Virus record (IMG/VR): IMGVR_UViG_3300048999_000131
Coordinates: 1 to 28,462 of that record
Reading direction: 5' to 3' (one strand)
DNA: 28,462 nucleotides
From: a virus
Lineage: Duplodnaviria > Caudoviricetes
Shown: in pieces, positions 3-16,534 of the stretch
Layout: each line of letters starts with the position of its first letter
Position numbering within the stretch: position 1 is the stretch's first letter
Made by a program: the position numbers and the translations under genes
The notes under the pieces: generated by a model
What the model was told of the DNA's origin: nothing
Database searches by the model: none
What the model saw: only the letters and a program-made list of their open reading frames with translations

Positions 3-686
3 CAGGCGTACATCATGTCCGGCACCGAGGGCGAAGTCCGTGTGACTCCGTTCGAGGGCAAGCGTGTTCCGGTGCGGTTCTTCCGCATCGCCTCGCGTCC
101 CGCGATCCGCAAGGAGGACCTGTTCTACCTGCGTATCAACGCGGTCGAGCAGGCCCAGGACGAGACCAAGCAGGCGATCCTCAAGCAGGAGGACACTCGC
201 CTGCTCGTCCTGCTCCAGGCCGCGCTGACGGACTACGCCACGCGCCCGGACCACACGGTCACCCCGAACCACAACATCACCGAGGCGTCGGGCTACCTGA
301 CGCCGGGGTCGCTGTACTCGGCCGTCGCGATGACGGACATGCACGAGCTTCAGAGCGCGCGCATCCTCATCAACCCGTTCGACTTCCGCGACCTCTACCG
401 CTGGGACATCAACCAGACGGGCTGGGCCTTCAAGGACCGGGTCGTCGCGGGCGAGACCATCACCTCGTTCGGTGAGTTCCAGATCCAGCGGTCGATCATC
501 GTGCCCCAGGGCAAGGTGTTCCTCACGCCGGAGCCCAACTTCTTGGGCGTTTTCCCCGTTCTGTACAGCTTGGACGTGGAAGAGAACCATATGGTCGAAG
601 CGTTCTGGAAGGGATGGGTATTCGACGAGATGGTCAACATGTCGATCCTCAACCCCCGGGGCATCGCGACCATCACCAAGGCCTAG
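3..686 (+). CDS. Major capsid protein, 3' part (5'-truncated by window)
   Basis: Frame is open from the window start (QAYIMSGTEGEVRVTPFEGKRV...). Ends with a capsid-like C-terminus (WVFDEMVNMSILNPRGIATITKA) followed by a strong hairpin, and lies upstream of head-tail and tail genes. Confidence 0.8.
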   Translation, partial: QAYIMSGTEGEVRVTPFEGKRVPVRFFRIASRPAIRKEDLFYLRINAVEQAQDETKQAILKQEDTRLLVLLQAALTDYATRPDHTVTPNHNITEASGYLTPGSLYSAVAMTDMHELQSARILINPFDFRDLYRWDINQTGWAFKDRVVAGETITSFGEFQIQRSIIVPQGKVFLTPEPNFLGVFPVLYSLDVEENHMVEAFWKGWVFDEMVNMSILNPRGIATITKA

Positions 687-704
687 CAGGGCCCCTGACC
701 TGCC

Positions 705-740
705 GAAAGGCCCCCTCGGATCTCTCCGAGGGGGCCTTTC
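705..740. terminator. GC-rich hairpin: probable capsid terminator and 3' hairpin of repeat unit A on the minus strand
   Basis: GAAAGGCCCCCTCGGA-tctc-TCCGAGGGGGCCTTTC, a perfect 16-bp stem. Confidence 0.85.
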
Positions 741-815
741 CCATGCCTTGCCGCACCCAACCATGCCCTACCATGCCAAGCCCCGCGTTGCCGAGACCCT
801 GATGCTATCAGGGTC
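705..815 (-). ncRNA. GGY-NN pentamer repeat unit A (putative guide RNA)
   Basis: Minus strand: palindrome GACCCTGA-TAGCA-TCAGGGTC (815-795), then TC GGC-AA CGC-GG GGC-TT GGC-AT GGT-AG GGC-AT GGT-TG GGT-GC GGC-AA GGC-AT GG, then hairpin 740-705. Confidence 0.8.
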
Positions 816-821
816 ATGACT

Positions 822-941
822 GAGGGCGCCACCCCGAAGGATGACGCCCTCCCATGCCATGCCGTGCCGATCCCCGCCTGGCCGCACCATGCCGTGCCCT
901 GCCACGCCGCTCCGGGACAAGCCTTGATGACCTTGACTCTA
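822..941 (-). ncRNA. GGY-NN pentamer repeat unit B (about 15 NN)
   Basis: Plus strand reads NN-RCC repeats at 852-925 (NN = AT AT GT GA CC TG GC AT GT CT AC GC GG AA TT). Hairpin at 822-851 and its own promoter at 965-936. Confidence 0.8.
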
Positions 942-965
942 TACAACCCCATGCACTTCTGTCAA
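936..965 (-). promoter_or_regulatory. Sigma70/HrdB-type promoter driving unit B
   Basis: Minus strand TTGACA (965-960), 18-nt spacer, TAGAGT (941-936). Confidence 0.8.
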
Positions 966-969
966 CGAC

Positions 970-1084
970 GAAGGGGCCTCCCGTAGGAAGCCCCTTCTCC
1001 TTGCCATGCCTCACCAAGCCTGGCCGCGTCTTGCCAGACCTCGCCCAGCCTCGCCATGCCCCGATGACCCTGACTCTATCAGGG
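970..1084 (-). ncRNA. GGY-NN pentamer repeat unit C (about 13 NN)
   Basis: Hairpin 970-997. NN-RCC tract 999-1062 (TT AT TC AA TG GC TT AG TC CA TC AT CC). Palindrome CCCTGA-CTCTA-TCAGGG at 1068-1084. Confidence 0.8.
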
Positions 1085-1108
1085 CCTGGTAGGGTAGCGC
1101 CACCCCAT

Positions 1109-1182
1109 GGTGGATGTAGCTCAGCAGGTAGAGCCCCTGGTTGTGGTCCAGGAAGTCGCGGGTTCAAGTCCCGTCATTCACC
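1109..1182 (+). tRNA. tRNA-His (GTG)
   Basis: Acceptor stem GTGGATG/CATTCAC plus the G-1:C73 pair typical of bacterial tRNA-His. D arm GCTC/GAGC, anticodon arm CCTGG-TTGTGGT-CCAGG (GTG at 1143-1145), T arm GCGGG-TTCAAGT-CCCGT. CCA is not encoded. Confidence 0.95.
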
Positions 1183-1191
1183 CTCAACGAC

Positions 1192-1346
1192 GAGAACCCC
1201 CTCAGTGAGGGGGCTCTCTCCATGTCCTGCCACGCCATACCCAGCCCAGCCCGACCGTGCCAAGCCCGTCCGGGCCATGCCGCACCTAACCGGGCCTTGC
1301 GGTGCCGTGCCCCGCCTAGCCTCTGCCCCTGACTCTATCAGGGGCA
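1192..1346 (-). ncRNA. GGY-NN pentamer repeat unit D (about 21 NN, the longest)
   Basis: Hairpin 1192-1218. Tract 1219-1323 (AT CT AC AT CA CA CG GT AA CG GG AT GC TA GG TT GT GT CC TA TC). Palindrome TGCCCCTGA-CTCTA-TCAGGGGCA at 1324-1346. Confidence 0.8.
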
Positions 1347-1350
1347 TGAC

Positions 1351-1453
1351 GAAGGGGCCACCCGGAGGTGACCCCTTCTCCCTGCCGTGCCACGCCGTGC
1401 CAAACCTGGCCCAACCATGCCACACCACACCCCGCCTAGCCGTACCTCGCGGA
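1351..1453 (-). ncRNA. GGY-NN pentamer repeat unit E (about 15 NN)
   Basis: Hairpin 1351-1378. Tract 1379-1453 (CT GT AC GT AA TG CA AT AC AC CC TA GT TC GA). No palindromic leader; it starts about 18 nt after the stop codon at 1471. Confidence 0.75.
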
Positions 1454-1470
1454 GGTCGTACAGAGGGCCG

Positions 1471-2022
1471 CTACTGCTCCAACTGCTCCGGGATGGCCGT
1501 ACCCCTCAGAGCCTTCTCCAGACGGCTCAGACGGTCGTCCAGACCCGCCACGTCCGCTTTGGTCTCCCGGCGTACCTGCTTCAGCGCCTCCTCGGTCTTC
1601 TGCTGGCGCCGGGTCAGCGACCGGACCATGGTCTGGACCGCACCGAGTTTTTGGGACGTCGCGACGATGACTTCACGCGTTGCCGGGGAAACGTCGTTCA
1701 GGTCGGTGTTGTCCAGGACTCCACGGGCCTTGACCAACTGCTTCGCGGCCTTGCGGGAATGGTCCCGGGAGATCCCGACGTGGGACTCCGCATCCACGAT
1801 CTCGTAGCCGATGCCCTGCTTGTTCTTCAGGGTGCGGTGGTCCAGCTCCAGGAGTTTCTTCTTCGCCTGGTAGTACGGGCTCCGGTCCTCGCGGACGTCG
1901 TACCCGAGCCACTCGGAGAGCTGGGCGTAGGTGACAACATCACCCGTACGCAGCTCTACGAGCTGTTCGTACACAGTGACCCAGCGAGCCCTGTCGCCGT
2001 TCGGGGAGAACGGAGTGCGCAT
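1471..2022 (-). CDS. Hypothetical 183-aa protein with a winged-HTH-like N-terminus and coiled-coil C-terminus; partner of the RAMP-like gene
   Basis: ATG at 2022 lies 2 nt after the stop of 2025-2603. Contains TGDVVTYAQLSEWLG...GIGYEIV and a heptad-like C-terminus. Confidence 0.7.
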   Translation of the reverse strand: MRTPFSPNGDRARWVTVYEQLVELRTGDVVTYAQLSEWLGYDVREDRSPYYQAKKKLLELDHRTLKNKQGIGYEIVDAESHVGISRDHSRKAAKQLVKARGVLDNTDLNDVSPATREVIVATSQKLGAVQTMVRSLTRRQQKTEEALKQVRRETKADVAGLDDRLSRLEKALRGTAIPEQLEQ

Positions 2023-2024
2023 GA

Positions 2025-2603
2025 TCAGTCCTCGATCTTCTCGACCACGGCCTCGAACCGGCCGAAGCGGGGACGGTAGTCGCCGAGGCCGATCATGACC
2101 CCGGCCTTCTCGGCGATCTCGGTGAAGGTGGGCAGGTCGATCTGGCCGTTGTCCACCAGGAAGTCGGCTTCCGTCACCCAGGTCCGGAACATCGGACGGG
2201 TGCGCATGACGCGGGAAGTGGTGACACCGACGGAGAGGCGCGAGACGAAGTTCTTGTCGGCCCACATTTCGTCAATGGCGCGAGGACCGTGGTAGCCGAC
2301 GGGGCAGACCTCGTCCAGTGCGATCACACCGCGCTCCACGTGACGGCCGAGCTTGTTGAGCTTGGCCGCCTCCACCAGGCACCGGTGGATGTTGATGCCC
2401 GGGATATAGGGACCGGCCGCCTCGTCGAAGTACAGGCCGCCCTCGAACTCGATCCGGGCCATGCGCTCCTGGTCGTCGTCCGTCTTCGTGCGCTTGGACG
2501 AGACCTCCTTCAGGCGCTTGGTGATGGGGTCGAGCGGGTCGGACAGACGCGCGTTGTGCATGAGGAGCGCGGTCGAACCGGTGATGTTCATTCGGACCTT
2601 CAT
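2025..2603 (-). CDS. Stand-alone Cas7/RAMP-like RNA-binding protein (Vipr-like), 192 aa
   Basis: N-terminal strand with ITGSTALLMHN, a YIPGINIHRCLVEAA segment, RVMRTRPMF and a C-terminal glycine loop IGLGDYRPRFGRF, in the order seen in RAMP/Cas7-group proteins. RBS AAGGAGG. Flanked by repeat units. Confidence 0.7.
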   Translation of the reverse strand: MKVRMNITGSTALLMHNARLSDPLDPITKRLKEVSSKRTKTDDDQERMARIEFEGGLYFDEAAGPYIPGINIHRCLVEAAKLNKLGRHVERGVIALDEVCPVGYHGPRAIDEMWADKNFVSRLSVGVTTSRVMRTRPMFRTWVTEADFLVDNGQIDLPTFTEIAEKAGVMIGLGDYRPRFGRFEAVVEKIED

Positions 2604-2642
2604 AGGCCCTCCTTGCGGAGTCGGTGATCTCTGGCGTCTCCG

Positions 2643-2672
2643 ACATTACTACAAGAAATCCTGGAGCGTCAA
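2643..2672 (-). promoter_or_regulatory. Sigma70-type promoter for the RAMP-like operon
   Basis: Minus strand TTGACG (2672-2667), 18-nt spacer, TAATGT (2648-2643), about 40 nt upstream of ATG 2603. Confidence 0.65.
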
Positions 2673-2676
2673 TGAC

Positions 2677-2788
2677 GAAGGGCCCCGGATTTTAAACTCT
2701 GGGGCCCTTCTCCATGCGGTGCCTTACCCGGCCCGGCCCTGCCTAGCGATGCCACGCCGCGCCACGAGGGCTTCACTTTATCAGGGTC
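2677..2788 (-). ncRNA. GGY-NN pentamer repeat unit F (about 11 NN)
   Basis: Hairpin 2677-2710. Tract 2711-2767 (AT GT TT CG CG CT TA AT AC GC AC). Degenerate leader GACCCTGATAAAGTG on the minus strand, overlapping the stop of the HTH gene. Confidence 0.78.
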
Positions 2789-3077
2789 ATTCCGGTTCTG
2801 GATAGGCATCCTCGCGTCGCTTGCGCGGGGTGACGTGGATGCCCGTCTGCCGACGCCATTTCTTCTCGAACTCCTCGACGTCACGGAGGAGCCAGATGCG
2901 TCCGCAGTCGAGCTTCTTCCAGTGGGGGCAGCGGGCCTCGGTGATCTCGCTGACACGCTGCTTCGAGACGTGCCAGCGCTTCGACAGCTCAGACAGACCG
3001 AGCACATCCATCGTCGTGAGATCGACGAGGACGGGCCCGGACTCCTCTGTGGTCTCTTCCAGGGATGCGGTGCTCAT
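2787..3077 (-). CDS. Small HTH DNA-binding protein (AlpA/Xis-like)
   Basis: DVLGLSELSKRWHVSKQRVSEI...LDCGRIWLLRDVEEF fits an HTH-plus-wing pattern. The start codon is uncertain (3077, or the later Met of MDVLG). Confidence 0.65.
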   Translation of the reverse strand: MSTASLEETTEESGPVLVDLTTMDVLGLSELSKRWHVSKQRVSEITEARCPHWKKLDCGRIWLLRDVEEFEKKWRRQTGIHVTPRKRREDAYPEPE

Positions 3078-3160
3078 GGGATCAAGGATCTCACATGGGG
3101 TTGACATTGTCATGGTCTGCGATGCATGCTGATGGTGCTTCACTCGCGAGCCCCCAATGC

Positions 3161-3193
3161 AGAAGCCCCGGCACCCCCCCCGCCGGGGCTTCT
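3161..3193. terminator. Hairpin at the island boundary
   Basis: AGAAGCCCCGGC-N9-GCCGGGGCTTCT. Confidence 0.7.
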
Positions 3194-3196
3194 TGC

Positions 3197-3230
3197 TGTT
3201 CGATCGCCTGTGACTCCGCGTAAGGGGTGA
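3197..3230 (+). promoter_or_regulatory. Putative phage late promoter motif (variant copy)
   Basis: TGTT-N20-TAAGGGGTGA, with the same spacing as the five other copies. Confidence 0.55.
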
Positions 3231-3257
3231 GAGAACCCCAGCTTTCGAGGAGTCACC

Positions 3258-3791
3258 ATGCCTGTCGGCGCGATCGTTGCCCGTAACCGGATGGACGGAG
3301 TGACCGTCCTCGCATCGGACGTCAAGGGCTCCCACTCAGTGGAGTGGGCAGCCCTCGGCGACCCCAGCGGAGACGACATCCAGTTCATCCCCAACGAGGT
3401 CCTGGAGTCGGTCGCCTTCCGCCGCGCGGTGTCGCGCGGGATCGTGGAGATCATGGAAGACGAGTCGGACCCGGACGTCGTCGGAGCCCTCGCAGCGCAG
3501 GTGGCCGCCTTCAAGCGGCGCCAGGAAGGCGCCAAGGAGGACGTGCAGGTCACGATCGACAGGCCGACGAGCCGCGACTCCCTCTCCGTCTTCTGCGTCG
3601 GTCCCGACTCCCGGGGTATCGGAAAGTGCGGACAGGCGGTGGCCGTCCCCGAGAAGCAGCTCAAGGACGTACCTCCGCTCTGCACCCAGCACAAGCATCT
3701 CGCCGCCCAGTTCGTCCCCGAGGTCGTCAACGGGGCCGAGGACAAGGTGGAATGGGTGCACGTCACCCTCGGCGCGCGCGAGCGCCTCTAG
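3258..3791 (+). CDS. Hypothetical protein of the head module (C-terminal Cys/His cluster)
   Basis: RBS GAGGAG, high-GC3 codon usage, C...C...CxxH near the C-terminus. Confidence 0.7.
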   Translation: MPVGAIVARNRMDGVTVLASDVKGSHSVEWAALGDPSGDDIQFIPNEVLESVAFRRAVSRGIVEIMEDESDPDVVGALAAQVAAFKRRQEGAKEDVQVTIDRPTSRDSLSVFCVGPDSRGIGKCGQAVAVPEKQLKDVPPLCTQHKHLAAQFVPEVVNGAEDKVEWVHVTLGARERL

Positions 3792-3809
3792 GACCCGGAG
3801 GAGAACGAC

Positions 3810-4496
3810 ATGACGGAGAAGAACGACGAAGTTCCCGAGGACGCCAAGCGGGACTCCCAGGGGGTCCCCTACGGCACCGGTGACGAGACGGGCCAGAAGA
3901 CGTACGTCCGCGAGGGTGACACCCCCGTGGACACGGATCAGTCAGACCGGCCGGAGCCCAAGGGCTACTACGAGAGCCTCGATCACGTTCCGGACCCCAC
4001 GGCCATGACCGGGACCCTGGAGACCAGCGGTACCGGCGGAGGTGCTCACGAGACCCTGCGGGGCACCACGGGTGTCTTCGACGACCTGTCGCCGGTCGTG
4101 GAGCAGAACGGTCTCCCCCTGTACGGCGCGGACGCGGTCCAGGCCCTCTCGGGGGACTCCACCGGCCAGCCCTCTCCCCACGGGGGTGCGGACGCCCAGG
4201 TCTCCCAGAAGTCCGCCGGACCCGAGAGCGCGTCCTACAACGAGAACGTCATCGCCGGAGGCGGAGATCCCAACCTCCGCCAGAGCGGTGAGCCCGCAGG
4301 AGCCTTCACGACCGCTGTGACGGTCCAGGAGGACCCGGAGGGCACCGGAGCCCAGGAAGAGGGTGACGACGGCTCCAAGGAGCAGTCAGAGCCCGAGACG
4401 AAGGCTCCGGCGAAGAAGACCGCCGCGAAGAAGACGACGGCCGCCGCTCGTAAGACCTCTACGGTCGAGCCGACCGACGACACCAAGAACGCCTGA
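3810..4496 (+). CDS. Hypothetical acidic, low-complexity protein with a basic PAKKTAAKK tail
   Basis: RBS GGAGGAG; typical codon bias. Confidence 0.7.
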   Translation: MTEKNDEVPEDAKRDSQGVPYGTGDETGQKTYVREGDTPVDTDQSDRPEPKGYYESLDHVPDPTAMTGTLETSGTGGGAHETLRGTTGVFDDLSPVVEQNGLPLYGADAVQALSGDSTGQPSPHGGADAQVSQKSAGPESASYNENVIAGGGDPNLRQSGEPAGAFTTAVTVQEDPEGTGAQEEGDDGSKEQSEPETKAPAKKTAAKKTTAAARKTSTVEPTDDTKNA

Positions 4497-4515
4497 CCCG
4501 TAGGGGAGCAGAGCC

Positions 4516-5919
4516 ATGACGACACCGCCCGGATACGCGGGTAGCAATACCGACACCTCGGGCGTGTCCGGAAACTCCGGCCCTGCTTCCCGGGGGACCC
4601 AGGACCGTTCCTCGAACCAGGAGACCGCCACTCCGGCGGGGTACGGAGGCGACCCGGACACCGGTCTCGCTCCCGACCCCAACACGGCGGTCACCGGTAC
4701 CCCGGACACCTCGGGCACCAACGCCTCGAACGGTCCTTACACCCCCACGCCGCCCCCGCTCCTGAGCGGGACCGTCGACACCCAGCTCCTGGGCTGGCCC
4801 CAGACCCCGGGTGTCACCCAGGCCTACCGGGCTCCCACCCAGGGTGTCGGGTACATCAACGGCACCGGCGCGGCCGACACCACCTGGACCGACCGTCCGA
4901 TCTCGGACGGCTCCGTGCGTACGGACTACGTCCAGAACATGACGGGCACCCAGGACTCGTACACGATCGGCGCCAACGGCGCGAACGGACCCGGGACCAG
5001 CTCCCTCGTCCCGGTCGCTCCTTCCGGCACTCCGACGGTGGCCACCGGCCCCCGCTCGGTGACGGTCACCTGGGCCACCGTGGCCGACCCGGACCCCACC
5101 GCCCCCGTGCTCGGGTACGTCATCCTGGGCTCCACCGGCGGTACGACCTTCGTCGGCGACGGCAACACCTCGGTCGTGGTGACCAACCTGGTTCCCGGCC
5201 AGCTCTACAAGTTCCAGGTGGCCGCGCGGAACAAGAACGGCACCGGTCCGTACGGAACCATCTCCGCCACGGTCACGCCGTACAACCCGGACGAGGCCGA
5301 CGTCAACAAGCCCGGCGGCCTGGACCCGTACTGGAAGCAGAACCCGATCTACAACGCGGACGGCACGATCAAGTCCGGATCGGGTACGTCGGGCAAGCCC
5401 GGAGCGCCCACCTCGGTGGTCCTCTCCGGTACTACGACCCCCGGCGTCGTCAACGTCGCCTGGACGGCCCCGGCCTCCGGCGGCACGATCCTGAGCTACA
5501 CCGTGACCCTCTCCAGCGGGCAGACCAAGTCCATCCCGACGGGGACCACCACGGCGCAGTTCACCGGCGTCACCAGCGCGACGGCCATCACCGCCACGGT
5601 CACCTCGGAGGGCGCGGTCATGGACGCCACCTCCACGGCGTCGGCCGCCTTCGGCAAGCCGACCGCTCCTGCGGCTCCGACGATCACGAGCCCCTCGACC
5701 GGGACCGTCCACTGCGTGTGGACCGCTCCGTCCTCGGGTGCTCCGCTGAACTACATCGTCACCCTCTCCAACGCCCACACCCACACGGTCGCGGGCAACG
5801 TGCTCACCTACGACTTCACGGGTGAGACCACGGGTGCCTCGGTGACCGCCACGGTGGGCGCACAGGGGTCGGTCTCCACGACCACCTCCGCCGCGTCCAG
5901 CTCGGTCACGGTCGCCTGA
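4516..5919 (+). CDS. Fibronectin type III repeat virion protein (head or tail decoration)
   Basis: Three Fn3-like modules (VTVTWAT...GYVI...VTNLVPGQLYKFQVAARN; VNVAWTAP...YTVT; VHCVWTAP...YIVT); Thr/Gly/Pro-rich. Confidence 0.8.
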   Translation: MTTPPGYAGSNTDTSGVSGNSGPASRGTQDRSSNQETATPAGYGGDPDTGLAPDPNTAVTGTPDTSGTNASNGPYTPTPPPLLSGTVDTQLLGWPQTPGVTQAYRAPTQGVGYINGTGAADTTWTDRPISDGSVRTDYVQNMTGTQDSYTIGANGANGPGTSSLVPVAPSGTPTVATGPRSVTVTWATVADPDPTAPVLGYVILGSTGGTTFVGDGNTSVVVTNLVPGQLYKFQVAARNKNGTGPYGTISATVTPYNPDEADVNKPGGLDPYWKQNPIYNADGTIKSGSGTSGKPGAPTSVVLSGTTTPGVVNVAWTAPASGGTILSYTVTLSSGQTKSIPTGTTTAQFTGVTSATAITATVTSEGAVMDATSTASAAFGKPTAPAAPTITSPSTGTVHCVWTAPSSGAPLNYIVTLSNAHTHTVAGNVLTYDFTGETTGASVTATVGAQGSVSTTTSAASSSVTVA

Positions 5920-5934
5920 CCCGAGACGAGCAAG

Positions 5935-5968
5935 GAGAAGCCCCGGGACCTGACTCCCGGGGCTTCTC
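5935..5968 (+). terminator. Intrinsic terminator-like hairpin
   Basis: GAGAAGCCCCGGGA-cctgac-TCCCGGGGCTTCTC just after the Fn3 gene. Confidence 0.8.
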
Positions 5969-6000
5969 GCACTTCTGTTGGTAGCACTCTCACCCCCTCC

Positions 6001-6034
6001 TGTCGATCCTCCCGGATCACCCGGGAAGGGGTGA
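6001..6034 (+). promoter_or_regulatory. Putative late promoter motif
   Basis: TGTC-N20-GAAGGGGTGA. Confidence 0.65.
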
Positions 6035-6059
6035 GGACCCACGAGAGGAACGGGAGCGG

Positions 6060-6719
6060 ATGTCCACCACAAGCCAGCGCATGGGGCTCAAGATCCCCGA
6101 CGGGTCGGACCCGTTCCTGCGGACCGACTTCGTCCAGAACTACAACACCTTGGACAGCTATCCGGGTGTCAGGATCTGCACCTCCACCACGCGACCCTCC
6201 TGGGGCTCGGGCCAGGCGGGCATGCTCATCCTGGAGACCGACACCCGCCGGAACATGATGTGGACCGGCACCACGTGGCGGGAGATGCTCTACGGCCCGG
6301 CGGTCTGGTGGGGCTCCACACGCCCTCAGGTGACGGCGGGCGCGAACACGATCCTCACGTACACGGTCGGCACCTTCACCGTGAACCGGCCCGGCACCAT
6401 CCTGGGCCTGCTCACCACGGAGATGGCCTTGTCCTGCCGGGGTCTGAACGGCTGCAACGTCCGCTGCATGCTGGACGGCGTGGACGCCAATATCGACACC
6501 GGCAACGGCGGTGAGTTCATCGCCAGCGCACTGCCCAACAGCTCCACCTTCGGCACCGGCAAGTCGGTCCAGACGGTACCTTCGATGGGTATCCGCAACA
6601 TCTCGGCCGGTACCCACTCCATCGGCCTGCGGGTCCAGACGTCGACCAGCAACGTCGCGGATCTGAAGCTCACCTCCGTCCGCGCCATGGCCGTCTTCGT
6701 CAACGGCACGGACCGCTAG
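6060..6719 (+). CDS. Putative minor tail/fibre-type structural protein
   Basis: N-terminus resembles fibre proteins (MGLKIPDGSD...TTRPSW...GMLILETDT..MMWTGTTW); beta-rich C-terminus. Confidence 0.55.
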   Translation: MSTTSQRMGLKIPDGSDPFLRTDFVQNYNTLDSYPGVRICTSTTRPSWGSGQAGMLILETDTRRNMMWTGTTWREMLYGPAVWWGSTRPQVTAGANTILTYTVGTFTVNRPGTILGLLTTEMALSCRGLNGCNVRCMLDGVDANIDTGNGGEFIASALPNSSTFGTGKSVQTVPSMGIRNISAGTHSIGLRVQTSTSNVADLKLTSVRAMAVFVNGTDR

Positions 6720-6727
6720 GAGTCCTC

Positions 6728-7597
6728 ATGGCCCTGTACTGGAACGACCGCAAGTACGTCAGCCAGTACGCCATCGATCCGGTGGGGATCAAGCTCGTCC
6801 GCAACCAGGTCCCCATCGACGCCGACGACGGCGTGCAGGCGACGATGTTCTCGGAGACGACCGGCAACCAGGTCTTCACGCGGCCTGCGGACCATCCGGG
6901 CACCGGCGAGTACGAGGTGTCCTTCGCGAGCGCGGAGACGTCTGTACCGGGGCCGTACACCCTCACGTGGACCTACTCGGTTCTGGGCAGCCAGGAGTAC
7001 GTGGAGTCCGGGATCGAGATCGGTCCGGCCGCCCCCTCGTACGACTATCTGCCGGAAGCTTTCAAGGATCTCGTGGAACAGACGGTGCTCCGTCTGGCCG
7101 ACACGATCGACTCCCCGGGCGGTGGCCCGAACCTCACCACGTACGTGCAGTCGAAGTACGGGCGCGGCAGGATCGCCGAGCTGATGTTCATCGCCCTGGG
7201 CCGCATGAACACGATGGCCCAGCCCTTCCAGACGTACACCCTGGACGGGGTCGGGGGAGCCCAGTTCCCGGTGGCCCAGTGGGGACCCCTCCTGGGCACC
7301 CTCACGTGGATCGAGACCCTCAAGCACCTGATCCGCTCCTACACCGAGCAGCCGACCTTTATGGGTTCGGGAGACGTCTCCCGGCTGGACCGGCGCGACT
7401 ACACCCAGCGGTGGCGGGATGTGCTCATGGAGGAGGAGGCGGCGGCCAAGAGCCAGCTCGATGTCTTCAAGATCGCCTCCATGGGTCTCGGCCGACCGGC
7501 CGTACTGATCTCCGGCGGGGTGTATGGCCGATATGGCCCAACTAGGATGGCGGGGTCGGTAGCTGCCCGTCCGAGGTATTGGACCAGATTTTACTGA
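6728..7597 (+). CDS. Putative head-to-tail adaptor
   Basis: RBS AGGAG, Ig-like N-terminus with a helical C-terminus, and position in the head-tail module. Confidence 0.5.
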   Translation: MALYWNDRKYVSQYAIDPVGIKLVRNQVPIDADDGVQATMFSETTGNQVFTRPADHPGTGEYEVSFASAETSVPGPYTLTWTYSVLGSQEYVESGIEIGPAAPSYDYLPEAFKDLVEQTVLRLADTIDSPGGGPNLTTYVQSKYGRGRIAELMFIALGRMNTMAQPFQTYTLDGVGGAQFPVAQWGPLLGTLTWIETLKHLIRSYTEQPTFMGSGDVSRLDRRDYTQRWRDVLMEEEAAAKSQLDVFKIASMGLGRPAVLISGGVYGRYGPTRMAGSVAARPRYWTRFY

Positions 7598-7617
7598 GTT
7601 TGTCTAGTAATGTCCAT

Positions 7618-7646
7618 TTGTCAGGGCACCAAGCACCTGATAACGT
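7618..7646 (+). promoter_or_regulatory. Sigma70-type promoter with the same palindromic -10 context as the repeat units
   Basis: TTGTCA (7618-7623), 17-nt spacer, TAACGT (7641-7646), embedded in CCTGA-TAACG-TCAGG. Confidence 0.55.
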
Positions 7647-7651
7647 CAGGG

Positions 7652-7763
7652 CTGCGGTGAAACCGGTCCCTCCGGCGGATCCGGCCCCCAGTGGCGAGAG
7701 GGATTTTAAAAACCACTGGCTAACGATGGGCCCCCGGCGCGCTAGAACGCGTGGACGGGGGCC
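7652..7763 (+). ncRNA. Candidate structured ncRNA
   Basis: Intergenic and downstream of the promoter. Interleaved pairings TCCCTC/GAGGGA and CCAGTGG/CCACTGG, with terminal stem GGCCCCCG/CGGGGGCC. Confidence 0.4.
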
Positions 7764-7797
7764 TGTCGCATGTCTGACAACTCCCCGGAAAGGGTGG
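7764..7797 (+). promoter_or_regulatory. Putative late promoter motif
   Basis: TGTC-N20-GAAAGGGTGG. Confidence 0.6.
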
Positions 7798-7808
7798 AGG
7801 TGGTCCCC

Positions 7809-7985
7809 ATGGCCTATTCGGTCACCATCGCGACCGGCAAGACGAATGTCGTGCTCCCCAACGGGAACCTGTACCAGGCGGGTGATGTGGCGATCCTGTC
7901 GGACGATCAGTTCGGTCAGATGCTCGCCGCCACGAAGACCGCCATCTTCTCGGCGTCCTCGATCATCGCGGTTCCCAACAGCTAG
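7809..7985 (+). CDS. Small hypothetical structural protein (58 aa, MAYSVTIATG...)
   Basis: RBS GGAGGTGG before ATG 7809; typical codon bias. Confidence 0.65.
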   Translation: MAYSVTIATGKTNVVLPNGNLYQAGDVAILSDDQFGQMLAATKTAIFSASSIIAVPNS

Positions 7986-8091
7986 ACCCTGATAGAGTCA
8001 GGGTCAGCAAGGCATCGCAGTGCCGGGCTCGGCTGGGTGGGGCAAGGCAGCGCTAGGCAAGGGGAAGGGCCCTTCGAGAGAAGGGCCCTTC
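7985..8091 (+). ncRNA. GGY-NN pentamer repeat unit G (orphan, 11 NN)
   Basis: GACCCTGA-TAGAG-TCAGGGTC (7985-8005), then AGC-AA GGC-AT CGC-AG TGC-CG GGC-TC GGC-TG GGT-GG GGC-AA GGC-AG CGC-TA GGC-AA GGG, then hairpin GAAGGGCCCTTC-gaga-GAAGGGCCCTTC (8064-8091). Confidence 0.82.
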
Positions 8092-8095
8092 GTCG

Positions 8096-8129
8096 TGTCC
8101 TGGCCAGATCGAGCCCGATGAAGGGGTGA
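8096..8129 (+). promoter_or_regulatory. Putative late promoter motif
   Basis: TGTC-N20-GAAGGGGTGA. Confidence 0.65.
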
Positions 8130-8150
8130 AGGATCCATCCCGGAGGCGAC

Positions 8151-9695
8151 ATGGCCCGCTATTTGTACCCCCAGGATCGTCTGGTCTTCCGCTATGGCGC
8201 TCCTGGGACTCCGCTGTACTCCCCTCAGGGGGAGACCCTCACGATCTACGCCGACGCGGGCGGCACGACTCTGGCGAGCATCCAGGAGCCGGACGGGACC
8301 CCTACGGACTCGACCCTGGACATCGGGGCGGACTGCCTGATCCCGGAGTTCAAGGGACCCGACGCGGCGACCACCGTGTGGGCCAAGAACCGTGCCGGGG
8401 ATCTGACCCCCTTGTTCGCCCAGACCGGCCAGTTCCTCACGCCTGGTTCCTCGGCGGTCACCTCTGTCAACGGTCACACGGGCGCGGTAGTCCTGGACTC
8501 GGCCGATGTGGACGCCTATCCGCAGGACGACGGCACGGCTCTGGCGGGGCGCGTCACCACCGTGGAGTCGGGCCGCCTGCTGGCGGTCAACAACCTCTCC
8601 GACCTGAGCAACCCCGCCTCGGCCCGTGCAGCCCTCAGCCTGGGCAACGCGGCCGTCCGGTCGGTCGGCACCACGAACAGCACCGTGGCCGCCGGAGACG
8701 CGCCCTCTGCGGCCGTCACAGCCCACATCGCGGCCTCGGACCCCCATGGTGACCGCGCCTACGCGGACGGGAGCAAGCTCGCCAAGAGCGCCAACCTCTC
8801 CGACGTGGCCAACCCGGCGACCGCTCGGACGAGCCTGGGACTGGGCTCGGCAGCCGTCAGGGCAGTAGGTGCGACCTCTGCCGACGTCGCGGCCGGAGAT
8901 GCCCCTGCGAACGCCGTCACAGCCCACGTGGCGGCTTCCGACCCGCACGGGGACCGCGCCTTCGCCACGGCGGCCATCGGGACGCACACGGCCGCCACGG
9001 ACCCTCACGGGGACCGTGCGTACGCGGACACGGCGAAGCTCGCGAAGAGCGCGAATCTCTCGGACGTCCAGACCCCCGCCACGGCCCGGACGAACCTCGG
9101 CCTGACCGCCATCGCCACGGCCGCCTTCGGCACCACGGCGGGCACCGTGACCCAGGGCAACGACAGCCGTCTCACCAACGCCCGTACGCCGACCGCTCAC
9201 GCCGCCACGCACGCCTCTGCGGGCTCGGACCCCATCACGCTGGCCCAGAGCCAGGTGACCGGCCTCACGGCAGCCCTGGGCACCTACCTGCCCCTCGCGG
9301 GCGGCACCCTGACCGGAGACCTGGTCCTCCAGGGCACCAGCAAGGCGTACCGGCTCCGGCGTGGGGGAGCGGGCCTGGACTTCGAGGCCGCCGGGGTCGA
9401 CATGGTTCTGTCGAACTGGTCGGCCGGAGACTTCACCGGGACCCAGCGCAGCTACATCCGCTTCTCGGCCGACGCCCAGAACATGCAGGTCGCGGGCAAG
9501 GTCGAGTTCGTGGATGCCCTGTACGGCTCGGCCAAGCACATCCTGGACGGCGCTACGAACACCGCTGCCTTCTTCGGTGCGGCAGCGGTCGGCAGGCAGA
9601 CCGTGAGCGGCTCCAAGGCCTCCGGAGCGGCCTTGACGAGCCTCCTCGCGGCCATGGTGAACCTCGGCCTGATCACCGACTCCACGACGGCCTAG
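8151..9695 (+). CDS. Tail fibre-like protein with internal repeats
   Basis: VTSVNGHTGAVVL motif, three NLSD(L/V)xxPAxARxxLGL-type repeats, three HxAAxDPHGDRA repeats, and YLPLAGGTLTG. Confidence 0.75.
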   Translation: MARYLYPQDRLVFRYGAPGTPLYSPQGETLTIYADAGGTTLASIQEPDGTPTDSTLDIGADCLIPEFKGPDAATTVWAKNRAGDLTPLFAQTGQFLTPGSSAVTSVNGHTGAVVLDSADVDAYPQDDGTALAGRVTTVESGRLLAVNNLSDLSNPASARAALSLGNAAVRSVGTTNSTVAAGDAPSAAVTAHIAASDPHGDRAYADGSKLAKSANLSDVANPATARTSLGLGSAAVRAVGATSADVAAGDAPANAVTAHVAASDPHGDRAFATAAIGTHTAATDPHGDRAYADTAKLAKSANLSDVQTPATARTNLGLTAIATAAFGTTAGTVTQGNDSRLTNARTPTAHAATHASAGSDPITLAQSQVTGLTAALGTYLPLAGGTLTGDLVLQGTSKAYRLRRGGAGLDFEAAGVDMVLSNWSAGDFTGTQRSYIRFSADAQNMQVAGKVEFVDALYGSAKHILDGATNTAAFFGAAAVGRQTVSGSKASGAALTSLLAAMVNLGLITDSTTA

Positions 9696-10428: not shown

Positions 10429-11784
10429 ATGTCCCTTCTGTGGGTCCGCACCGCTGCGGCGGAGTGGTACAAAGCCCGGAACACGGCGGACATGGCCGCC
10501 ATGAAGCGGCACCGCCAGCAGATCATGGGCGCCCACGGCGTGAAGGACTATCAGGCGGGCATCGCCCTGAGGCCTGTCTATCAGGCCCTGTCCCGGAGCA
10601 AGATCGGCCAGATCAGCGCCAAGGACGCGGGCTTCGCCTCTTCTCCCCGGCAGGATTCCTACGGCAGTGACGTGCTCCCCTGGGATGACGATCACCCCTT
10701 GAACGAGCACGAGAACTGGCACAAGATCCCCGTCACGGACGTCTCTCTGCGCGGGCCCGTCCATGCCACCCAGGACGGCGTGGGAGCCAGCCTCGTGGCC
10801 CACAATCTCTTCCACCCCGGGAAGCTCCCTCCCACGGAGTGGCCCGGCCAGGAGGGCACCAAGGGGCTCGGGGACCCCGACGTCGACCCGGACACCCACG
10901 ACCACGCCGAACGTGTGGAGAACGTAGGAGCCGACGAGGCCAGCAAGGTCCCGAGGTTCTACCGGAAGAACGGCCAGCTCCATGTGGCCGACGGACATCA
11001 CCAGGTGGCCGCCGCACTGCTGATGAAGAAGCCCCACATCCAGGGCCGTGTCTGGGACGAGTCGGCCATGGGGAAAGAGGCCATGGCGTGGTGGAACAAC
11101 GACGAGGACCACGACTACGAGGAGGACCTGCGCCCAAAAGGTGAAAGCCTCGCAGAGCGGGGCGGCCGGTTCGTCAAGCAGATCTCCGATGCCCACGGGA
11201 TCCCCGAAGGTCATGCCCGTTCTGTCGCCAAGACCCTCCTGGGCCATGTCCAGAACGGGACGATGGACCCCCGGCAGTACGGCTTCGCCTCGGCCGCCCA
11301 CGACCGCGAGGGCCACTACTCCCTCCCGCAGACGCGGGCCCTGATGGATCACAAGACCTGGGCGGGCAAGAAGCCCGAGTCGGTGGACATCTCCCAGGGT
11401 GTGCATGCCACCCAGAACTACGTGGATCCCGACCGGGTGGCTCACAACGTCTTCCACCCGGGCAAGAAGGCCCCCTGGTCGGAGCCGCACGCCACGGGCG
11501 ACCCCGACTACGACCCGCACTGGGACGGAGACGAGGACGAAGAGGGGTCCGGCATGGAGATGGACCACGACTCGGTCCAGAACCGGAAGCTGGAGAACCA
11601 CACCCGCTTCGTCCGCCGGAACAACGGGGACCTGGAGGTCGCCGACGGGCACCACAGGGTTGCGGCAGACCTTTTGCTGGGGAAGACCCACACCCCGGGT
11701 GTAGTGCTCCACGAGAACGAGCTGAACAGCCACATGCAGCGCTTCAGCTTCTCCCTGACCGCCCTCTTCGAGAACTGGAACTGA
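10429..11784 (+). CDS. His-rich protein with two tandem ParB/Srx-like domains
   Basis: Duplicated VHATQ...VAHN(L/V)FHPGK and VADGHH(Q/R)VAA motifs; RBS AGGAG. Confidence 0.7.
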   Translation: MSLLWVRTAAAEWYKARNTADMAAMKRHRQQIMGAHGVKDYQAGIALRPVYQALSRSKIGQISAKDAGFASSPRQDSYGSDVLPWDDDHPLNEHENWHKIPVTDVSLRGPVHATQDGVGASLVAHNLFHPGKLPPTEWPGQEGTKGLGDPDVDPDTHDHAERVENVGADEASKVPRFYRKNGQLHVADGHHQVAAALLMKKPHIQGRVWDESAMGKEAMAWWNNDEDHDYEEDLRPKGESLAERGGRFVKQISDAHGIPEGHARSVAKTLLGHVQNGTMDPRQYGFASAAHDREGHYSLPQTRALMDHKTWAGKKPESVDISQGVHATQNYVDPDRVAHNVFHPGKKAPWSEPHATGDPDYDPHWDGDEDEEGSGMEMDHDSVQNRKLENHTRFVRRNNGDLEVADGHHRVAADLLLGKTHTPGVVLHENELNSHMQRFSFSLTALFENWN

Positions 11785-11786
11785 TC

Positions 11787-12545
11787 ATGAGCCTGCTGTG
11801 GAGGACAGCGGTCCGTCGTACGGCCGCCTGGGAGCCCCGGAATTCCGTGGAGCACATCCACCCCTCGGAGATGGAGAACGACTACCACACGCCCCTCCAG
11901 CGCGAGCACGTGAGCCGCATGGCGGACTCCATCAAGCAGCACGGGTACAGCCCGGAGAGGCACGGTCAGCTCGGTCTGAACGTCACCGACGAGGGCGAGA
12001 ACATCTACCACCACACCTCTGGTACGGACACGCACCCGGACGACGCGCACCCTCACGAGCACCTCCTGAAGGCGCTCCAGGAGACAGGCCACGGAGACGT
12101 GCCGGTCCATGTTCACGACCAGTCCTCCACCGAAGAGCACCCGGCGCCGGAGTACTACCACGGCACCACGGTGGAGGACCTGGAGCGTATTCACCCGAAC
12201 CACGGCAATTCGGGGAACTTCGGCCAGGGAACGCACGCCAGGGGCTATGCGTACGCCACGGGCAAGAATTCGGCCTGGAACTACGCGGAGAAGGCCGCCG
12301 ACAACCAGGAGGGCGTTCCGCACGTCTACAAGGTCTCCCCGCGCGGACCCGTGGAGGAGGACCCGCACTGGGAGAACGGCAACAACCGGGGCAACAACCT
12401 GGATGACGTGCGCTCGAAGCACGGCTTCGACACCCAGGGCGAAGAGGAGATGCCCCAGCACCTCCAGAACTACTACCACGACCGGATCCACGGCGAAGAG
12501 GGCGAGGATCACGGGTACGGCGAGGACGAGGGCGGGGACTGGTAG
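11787..12545 (+). CDS. His-rich protein: ParB-like N-terminal fragment plus Arr-like ADP-ribosyltransferase domain
   Basis: HVSRMADSIKQHGY, then YYHGT...YAYAT...AWNYA...HVYKVSPRGPVEEDP, resembling the Arr family pattern (FYHGT...VYxVEPTGxxExDP). Confidence 0.62.
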   Translation: MSLLWRTAVRRTAAWEPRNSVEHIHPSEMENDYHTPLQREHVSRMADSIKQHGYSPERHGQLGLNVTDEGENIYHHTSGTDTHPDDAHPHEHLLKALQETGHGDVPVHVHDQSSTEEHPAPEYYHGTTVEDLERIHPNHGNSGNFGQGTHARGYAYATGKNSAWNYAEKAADNQEGVPHVYKVSPRGPVEEDPHWENGNNRGNNLDDVRSKHGFDTQGEEEMPQHLQNYYHDRIHGEEGEDHGYGEDEGGDW

Positions 12546-16081: not shown

Positions 16082-16534
16082 CTAGTAGACATGACCACAA
16101 CCCTCTTCGTGAGCGTCCACGGGACACAGGCCGTGACTACGCAGGATGTTCACCTCGTTCGTGACCGGCTCCAGGTGCGCGAGGTAATTCACGCAGTCCT
16201 TCCGGACGCACCCCTTGGCCTTGACGTGGTCAACGGTCAGGCCGTCGGGGATCGGGCCAACGAAGTGCTCGTAGGCCCACCTGTGGGCCGGAGAGTTCTT
16301 TCCGTCGGCCTTCTTGAAGATGCCGTAGCCCTTGCGGTCCGTGTAGGCCGTCCAGGGCCAGCACTCGGTGTCGCTCCGGCGGTCCACGTGGGACCAGAAG
16401 CGTGCCTCCTCGTCCCCTCGGATGAAGGCCACGGCGTCGGTACTCCCGTACCGCCGGAGTCGGCTGTAGTGCTTCACACAGAGGCCCTTGGCCCGAGCAG
16501 CGGTGGGGCAGTCGTCCACGGTGCAATTCGCCAT
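16082..16534 (-). CDS. Free-standing HNH endonuclease
   Basis: Zinc ribbon CTVDDC...GLCVKHY, then RFWSHVD...CWPWTA...GYG...AHRWAYE...DH...CVN..HLEPVT..VN. TAGTGT lies 7 nt before the ATG, suggesting a leaderless mRNA. Confidence 0.88.
   Translation of the reverse strand: MANCTVDDCPTAARAKGLCVKHYSRLRRYGSTDAVAFIRGDEEARFWSHVDRRSDTECWPWTAYTDRKGYGIFKKADGKNSPAHRWAYEHFVGPIPDGLTVDHVKAKGCVRKDCVNYLAHLEPVTNEVNILRSHGLCPVDAHEEGCGHVY

Follow-up and report, generated by a model that had tools for sequence, protein, structure and literature searches.

VIPR guide units that match a gene of related phages tend to adjoin that gene in the phage that carries them

The stretch of viral DNA analysed here (the window, 28,462 nucleotides; positions 1 to 28,462 of IMG/VR record IMGVR_UViG_3300048999_000131) covers the structural region of a high-GC actinobacterial myophage and carries a VIPR system, made up of the RAMP-fold protein Vipr, its accessory protein Vap and guide units built of GGY/NN pentamers. 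The capsid protein is 61-63% identical to those of the Mycobacterium phages Phabba and Myrna and 84-85% identical to capsids on ~150-kb Streptomyces contigs, one of which is labelled a complete plasmid. A 2.1-kb insertion, which the closest relative (G004) lacks, separates the capsid stop codon from the next conserved gene; it holds vipr, vap, a tRNA-His gene and six GGY/NN units, while a seventh unit stands alone beside the tail fibre gene. Units A-F lie on the minus strand and unit G on the plus strand; six units have 11-14 pentamers each and one (D) has 20. The features are as follows.

3..686, plus strand: 3' part of the major capsid protein gene, truncated where the window begins; PHROG 2522 major head protein, E=5e-74
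351..382, minus strand: site of the gapped unit A match in the capsid gene, at residues SARILINPFD; 17/22, p=0.013
705..815, minus strand: unit A, with extended -10-like box, 11 pentamers (743-797) and 3' hairpin (705-740)
859..928, minus strand: repeats of unit B; sigma-70-like promoter at 965-936
1001..1065, minus strand: repeats of unit C
1110..1183, plus strand: tRNA-His gene within the array, lying between units C and D on the strand opposite to the units
1227..1326, minus strand: repeats of unit D, 20 pentamers
1387..1446, minus strand: repeats of unit E
1471..2019, minus strand: Vap accessory gene, 182 amino acids; helical N-terminal part and long C-terminal helix in a low-confidence model
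2025..2603, minus strand: vipr gene, RAMP-fold guide-binding protein of 192 amino acids; PDB 36pp SUSP1 Vipr, E=2.9e-37
2714..2768, minus strand: unit F, which decodes to the motif RRLYMTAT of a Streptomyces HA/ResIII helicase gene
7989..8095, plus strand: unit G, a solo 107-bp insertion with extended -10-like box, 11 pentamers (8006-8060) and 3' hairpin
8157..8188, minus strand: site of the gapped unit G match, in the first fibre codons (YLYPQDRLVF); 17/22, p=0.007
8151..9695, plus strand: tail fibre gene; PHROG 16641 tail fibre, E=1e-11

The system is a VIPR system as described in bioRxiv 10.64898/2026.04.26.720920, with Vipr, Vap and seven GGY/NN units (this and the other papers are cited from the parts of their texts that were available). 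The stand-alone RAMP protein matches SUSP1 Vipr over residues 4-186 and is 40% identical to SUSP1-family Vipr; the RNA-contact His, the thumb Arg and the G-loop Asp/Arg of SUSP1 Vipr all align. Besides the RAMP protein, the GGY/NN units with a structured 3' tail and the wobble-aligned one-base-skip code of VIPR are present. A VIPR unit has 9-16 pentamers, a range into which all units here except D fall. Vap has no Pfam match and falls into PHROG 5926, a family without assigned function, and its homologues stand beside vipr in relatives. Pfam, PHROG and PDB searches placed neither Vipr nor Vap in a nuclease family, the single-sequence fold of Vap being of low confidence; no polymerase, reverse transcriptase or integrase gene was found in the cassette, and Vipr as a query found no relatives among viral contigs. 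According to the VIPR preprints, Vipr-vrRNA filaments bind guide-matched sites and repress transcription. In the majority of such units a TGnTAGAGT-like extended -10 box, a putative promoter, stands at the start and a hairpin at the end (folding z -4.8 to -6.1 for three units), each unit being a portable cassette of ~110 bp. Unit G, relative to the unit-free G004, is a clean insertion.

Guides were decoded by the one-base-skip rule and their significance was taken from 300 dinucleotide-order shuffles. The proposal of the earlier note that unit A abuts the capsid gene it matches, and that unit G abuts its matched fibre gene some 5 kb from the effector, is borne out, as these two sites are the best matches of the two units in the window. 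The skipped base is the third codon position in both, and the unit A guide would pair with the capsid coding strand, wobble bases skipped. The tail hairpin of unit A begins 19 bp past the capsid stop, occupying the place of a terminator-like capsid hairpin in unit-free relatives, and its repeats lie ~360 bp from the target; unit G stops 91 bp short of the fibre gene, with its target ~100 bp away and vipr at a distance of 5.4 kb. Units B-F gave no significant self match within the window (p 0.10-1.0), and skips of 0 or 2 reached p=0.017 in one of 14 control tests (unit G, skip 2).

The same arrangement recurs in relatives. The set comprised the best 80 of the 305 loci that a capsid query gave and, from 14 relatives, whole or partial records. 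Here 74 units at 27 sites were tested, each guide minus its last dinucleotide, against the relatives' homologues of 1.1 kb on each side, arrays of other architecture (G009, L028, L030, L036, L038, L042) being excluded from the counts. Terminal or solo units matched in 8 of 47 tests at p<=0.03 (7 at <=0.01) and internal units in 0 of 86; with the window excluded, the figures are 6/41 versus 0/78 (Fisher p=0.0013). At loci L005, L008, L016 and L025, too, the unit closest to the capsid stop spells a stretch of the capsid gene, at three sites other than that of unit A and on both strands, and each of the five capsid matches belongs to the outermost unit on the side facing the gene. Adjacency matches were also found for a unit beside a helicase-like gene in G001 and for a solo unit of G002 (L014 6756-6815 = G002 111498-111557), which lies in frame inside an opposite-strand open reading frame (ORF) of 688 amino acids, ~150 bp from its target within the same ORF. 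When the whole 2.34 Mb of relatives' sequence was searched, 8 of the 74 guides beat all 30 shuffles; five of these map to the adjacent gene and two to nothing in the carrier, and the three non-adjacent matches all fall in the AT-richer genome G007.

A scan by repeat pattern only gave 61 IMG/VR loci, of which 7 on contigs used already and 5 family members were dropped, leaving 49 with 36 testable. In the own flanks of these unrelated phages, terminal units matched in 6 of 97 tests at p<=0.01 (binomial p=4.5e-4), internal units in 1 of 94, and the wrong skips 0 and 2 in 0 of 191 each. Two of the six terminal matches come from related phages and one involves a doubtful ORF; the remaining ones lie in frame in a capsid gene, a portal gene and the vipr of the phage itself. 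That such matches are products of chance or ascertainment is very improbable and largely refuted already. The matches are indeed short and gapped, the 80 loci were collected around the capsid, the p-values derive from shuffles of few dinucleotides and the trimming of the 3' dinucleotide was decided after seeing the data. However, internal units on the same flanks gave no match, loci found by repeat pattern alone replicate the adjacency, the wrong-skip controls are empty and the mycobacteriophage LittleE, described below, is an independent case. The counts support the view that guides matching a gene shared with kin lie beside it, reading a conserved stretch of it, much more often than chance would give, and that this extends to other families of phages.

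The matched gene of the carrier often differs from that of its relatives. With G.U counted as paired, and over core dinucleotides chosen after inspection, the guides of L005, L008, L016 and L025 have 2, 2, 2 and 3 true mismatches to their own capsid gene, and none to that of 33, 2, 58 and 43 of 64 other lineages, respectively. The carrier changes at read positions are mostly swaps within the Leu, Ser and Arg codon families (CTN>TTR, TCN>AGY, CGN>AGR), which would evade a wobble-blind code and leave the protein unchanged. Their concentration in the site is significant for L016 (p=0.009), where the codons used are rare (TTG 3/65, AGG 2/65), and for L025 (p=0.018). Two loci that came from the repeat pattern alone, L244 and L259, have guides matching an adjacent helicase gene, and the unit-free G003 fits these guides better than the carrier does (16 vs 15 of 18 for L244; 17 vs 14 of 18 for L259). 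A mismatch in the carrier sequence is present in LittleE, L005, L016, L025, L244 and L259, weak for unit G and absent for unit A; the carrier allele appears usually to be mismatched, with unit-free relatives fully pairing. The genome G001 has twenty units, nine of them solo and scattered, and the most TTR/AGR capsid codons (8) of 81 loci.

The cultured phage LittleE, alone among 50,697 phage records in having its cassette, bears vipr, vap and units as an insertion behind its tape-measure gene (L260 3557-5506; genes 33-35, annotated as hypothetical proteins, with gp35 overlapping two guide units). Over eight dinucleotides the terminal unit of LittleE scores 16/16 against the tape-measure gene of six of the seven cassette-free relatives fetched (15/16 in Baka), and shows one mismatch and one wobble, from TTA and TTG codons, to the allele of LittleE itself. 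The divergence between LittleE and Squint is concentrated in the last 400 nt of the tape-measure gene, the TTA/TTG codons lying inside the tract; divergence tracts also border the cassette, unit G and the HNH gene of the window. The linkage of a kin-directed guide to a recoded target beside it appears, to judge by these genomes, to be a general pattern across phages.

Units A and G, from which the earlier note had reasoned that the resident allele is resistant, fit this pattern less well. Over nine core dinucleotides unit A has 17 Watson-Crick pairs, one U.G pair and no true mismatch to its own capsid gene; the AGC allele becomes one base worse than the TCN allele only when the tenth dinucleotide is counted. 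Exact-pattern scans of IMG/VR gave no perfect target for unit A, whether in full or by its core, or for the core of unit G. The His/Gln literally spelled by unit A occur in 0 of 120 capsid homologues, and these positions are therefore read, post hoc, as U.G wobble or unpaired tail repeats. As pairing advances from the tail end (10.64898/2026.04.26.720927), tail-side mismatches may matter, but the penultimate dinucleotide, which begins with A in 28 of 35 units, may not be read. For unit A the claim of resistance thus falls, and what the earlier note had named as speaking against it is largely what was found, namely a unit-free relative with the same bases and no perfect allele. For unit G it holds to a modest degree. 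Over ten dinucleotides the Watson-Crick pairs number 17 in the window, 19 in G003, 18 in G004 and 17 in L155 (the search with the fibre N-terminus returned 3 + 1 loci only). The G003 allele, with CTG and TTT where the window has TTG and TAC, pairs fully with one wobble; of the three distinct unit-free alleles, one thus pairs fully, one equals the window in mismatches and one has more. The expected association between the presence of a unit and mismatch of the adjacent gene is seen across relatives in most cases, cleanly in LittleE, and fails for unit A.

Traces of older guides may be preserved in the capsid genes. G001, without an A-like guide, has AGT, AGG and TTG at the unit A site (p=0.007), and the window capsid has TTG and AGC in the L005 site, inside a 24-nt haplotype found in 3 of 81 loci, all three carriers (the window, L001 and L005). 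These codons suggest that the terminal guide turns over while recoded sites stay behind. The three carriers have the same tail hairpin as well as the haplotype, and different guides at that position. Unit A is probably a recent or recombined case, its own allele being little protected.

The same observations bear on the main rival explanation, in which guides are written from nearby DNA and match their carrier at birth, the carrier escaping later by codon-family swaps, so that adjacency is a by-product of birth. It accounts for the outermost position of the matching unit in the five capsid cases equally well, and the differing guides beside a shared hairpin and haplotype, the full self-pairing of unit A, as expected of a young guide, and the frequency of rare codons in carrier alleles (e.g. 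L016) are in its favour. However, units F and L001 match genes outside the flank of their carrier, the L008 guide fits the allele of only 2 of 64 other lineages, and the cassette is without a polymerase, reverse transcriptase or integrase gene. Overall we regard this explanation as rather unlikely.

We consider it marginally probable that guide units target the neighbouring gene as it occurs in related phages, and that each forms, with the recoded gene copy, a toxin-antidote-like module. In a shared cell, the Vipr-guide complex would handicap the relative's copy of the gene by silencing, and probably also by a block to replication or packaging of the relative's DNA. Progeny that gain the resistant allele by homologous recombination would tend to co-inherit the unit, recombinants rescued by that allele thereby picking up the linked guide, whereas a unit parted from it would poison its carrier. 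As a guide would poison any carrier with an unrecoded needed gene, guide and recoded allele would persist only if tightly linked; selection would thus keep kin-directed guides ~0.1-0.9 kb from their target, and guides against unshared genes, such as unit F, would need no linkage. The guide and the protected gene copy would then likely spread together like a natural gene drive.

Several observations weigh against such a module. Swap enrichment falls short of significance in the window (p=0.26), in L005 (p=0.15) and in L008 (p=1), and the own allele of L008 is the common one. Unit A fully pairs with its own capsid gene over the nine core dinucleotides, as it does with 43 of 64 other lineages; the unit-free G004 has the same read bases at this site, which moreover lies outside the divergence tract (starting near codon 175). 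Unit G has one true mismatch in the window, as many as in the unit-free G004, and two in the unit-free L155. No adjacent match was found in 39 of the 47 terminal tests, and one of the eight top guides of the 2.34-Mb search maps to a shared gene ~23 kb away, a possible counterexample. Any recombinational transfer, furthermore, would leave flanking divergence. The mechanism is weakest at the advantage in cis. Silencing alone would give none in lytic co-infection, because capsid, fibre and tape-measure proteins act in trans; protection of a lysogen would add little for LittleE because cluster J phages are homoimmune (PMC3706429). With virion proteins shared in the co-infected cell and cluster J homoimmune, a block to replication or packaging is probably needed, and the available texts of the VIPR preprints report no such block by Vipr.

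The self-pairing of unit A would also be compatible with self-regulation, in which terminal guides damp the neighbouring late gene of their own phage, for instance in a prophage or a plasmid-like state, the mismatches setting how strongly. At 17/20, self scores are above the 80% target cut-off of the VIPR preprint, and Streptomyces assemblies contain relatives as replicons of ~150 kb, one of them labelled a plasmid. This explanation is nevertheless improbable, as in all seven other cases where a foreign allele pairs almost fully (G, L005, L008, L016, L025, LittleE and L259) that allele beats self, units are absent from the majority of relatives, and regulation in trans would need no adjacency.

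The comparison with homing elements made in the earlier note agrees with the adjacency and, in most cases, with a mismatched carrier allele, but not with the non-coding nature of the units or with the failure to find a nuclease. In true RNA-guided homing, Vap or a neighbouring HNH nuclease would cut the relative's allele at the Vipr-bound site, and double-strand break repair would copy allele and unit, in the manner of the free-standing endonucleases of T4. The distances from target to insertion and the flanking tracts resemble intronless homing (PMC2988022), and an HNH-like ORF, recognised by eye, lies between capsid and array in G001. However, Vap matches no nuclease family in Pfam, PHROGs or the PDB, the VIPR preprint describes type II Vap as predicted DNA-binding and the systems as repressors, and solo units such as G have no nuclease beside them; we regard such cutting as quite improbable. 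A nuclease-free version is conceivable though doubtful, in which the units are RNA-guided homing elements, each a 110-bp cassette that would rely on a Vipr supplied in trans to exclude the neighbouring gene as the relative has it and to drive both the cassette and the recoded allele through phage populations, new guides perhaps being written from adjacent DNA.

Guides against non-adjacent genes also occur. The pattern RRLYMTAT of unit F, picked after the motif had been recognised, is found at <=1 mismatch in 73 of 301 Streptomyces genomes and its reversed control in none. The target domain is an HA/ResIII helicase by Pfam; no phage homologue of this target was found and unit F does not adjoin it. 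The guide is conserved in three phages, with look-alikes at G001 107724-107778 and L008 3929-3968. The matches are often near chromosome ends, several lying no more than a few kb from both ends of a chromosome, as with TtrA. Unit B gave a single match with 3 mismatches in 151 Streptomyces genomes, near chance; unit C had no target in these genomes or in the 2.34-Mb relatives' search, and units D and E had none in the latter, the Streptomyces genomes not having been searched for these two. The solo unit of L001 matches the vipr gene of the window over eight dinucleotides. At L203 (1876-1984) a terminal guide matches the G-loop codons of the phage's own adjacent vipr, with an AGC Ser codon at the mismatch.

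Arrays elsewhere differ in architecture. Very long degenerate GGY/NN arrays with 4-nt spacers are present in G009 (7143-7853, 27464-28940, 43507-45486) and L042 (3439-4126), two relatives in which no Vipr homologue was found, and the first L042 unit matches the region upstream of the L038 array. G008 (48191-51447) has fifteen units around a distant Vipr (35-37%), with unit tails that resemble a tRNA T-arm (GGTTCGA), as in LittleE and Trine. Within the structural region of the window, a gene for a His-rich protein with weak ParB-like similarity (10429-11784) precedes a gene with an Arr-ms ADP-ribosyltransferase domain (11787-12545, E=1.6e-7). A crude motif scan for ParA gave no match. A free-standing HNH gene (16082-16534), absent from G004, has a divergence tract at the end of the tube gene.

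The closest known systems are the VIPR of SUSP1 and the type II VIPR of Pseudomonas fulva (10.64898/2026.04.26.720920), which share the Vipr homologue, vap, GGY/NN units, one-base skip, wobble-aligned targets and carriage by phages. In the text available, the targets reported for them are resident prophages and satellites, and no guide hits self at >=80%, whereas the target here is the phage's own neighbouring core gene as found in kin, with a partial self match. The units here are also scattered singly and have simple hairpins as tails. Solo vrRNAs of the SUSP1 family (10.64898/2026.10.15.759431) stand where vipr-vap1 is deleted and target the vipr of relatives, cases like L001 and L203 here, and the vrRNA-targeting guides match self less well than other guides do. 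That work, as far as available, concerns guides against the VIPR system, satellites and host repeats, and argues that wobble skipping prevents escape; swaps between six-fold-degenerate codons would, in contrast, allow silent escape in guide-linked structural and helicase genes. The free-standing homing endonucleases of T4 (SegF/56, SegG/32, MobE/nrdB; PMC2988022) are likewise intergenic, with an adjacent conserved-gene target hundreds of bases away and co-conversion-like tracts, but here specificity is coded in RNA, the effector works in trans over a distance of kilobases and the searches gave no nuclease. In Cleave and Rescue drives (PMC6442612), too, a guide that targets an essential gene is in tight linkage with a recoded copy resistant to it; these drives are engineered, rely on Cas9 cleavage and act in diploid animals, whereas the case here is natural, in phages, with a presumed repressor and the native gene as rescue. 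A rule placing guides beside their targets was not found in the available texts of the three VIPR preprints, the first being without the term 'homing' and the competition preprint without 'linked', although their supplementary target tables may contain adjacent-gene cases. VIPR is thus a known system, and guide-target linkage apparently a new organising rule.

The origin, spread and self-avoidance of VIPR guides are not explained in the available texts of the VIPR preprints. The linkage rule would provide a mechanism for telling self from non-self, by swaps between six-fold codons, and a way to predict targets from guide position; LittleE and Squint on M. smegmatis mc2 155 form a cultured pair in which it is directly testable. 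If guides were indeed written from adjacent DNA, this would expose the acquisition route of a CRISPR ancestor, and the linked units themselves offer a candidate natural gene drive built on a repressor.

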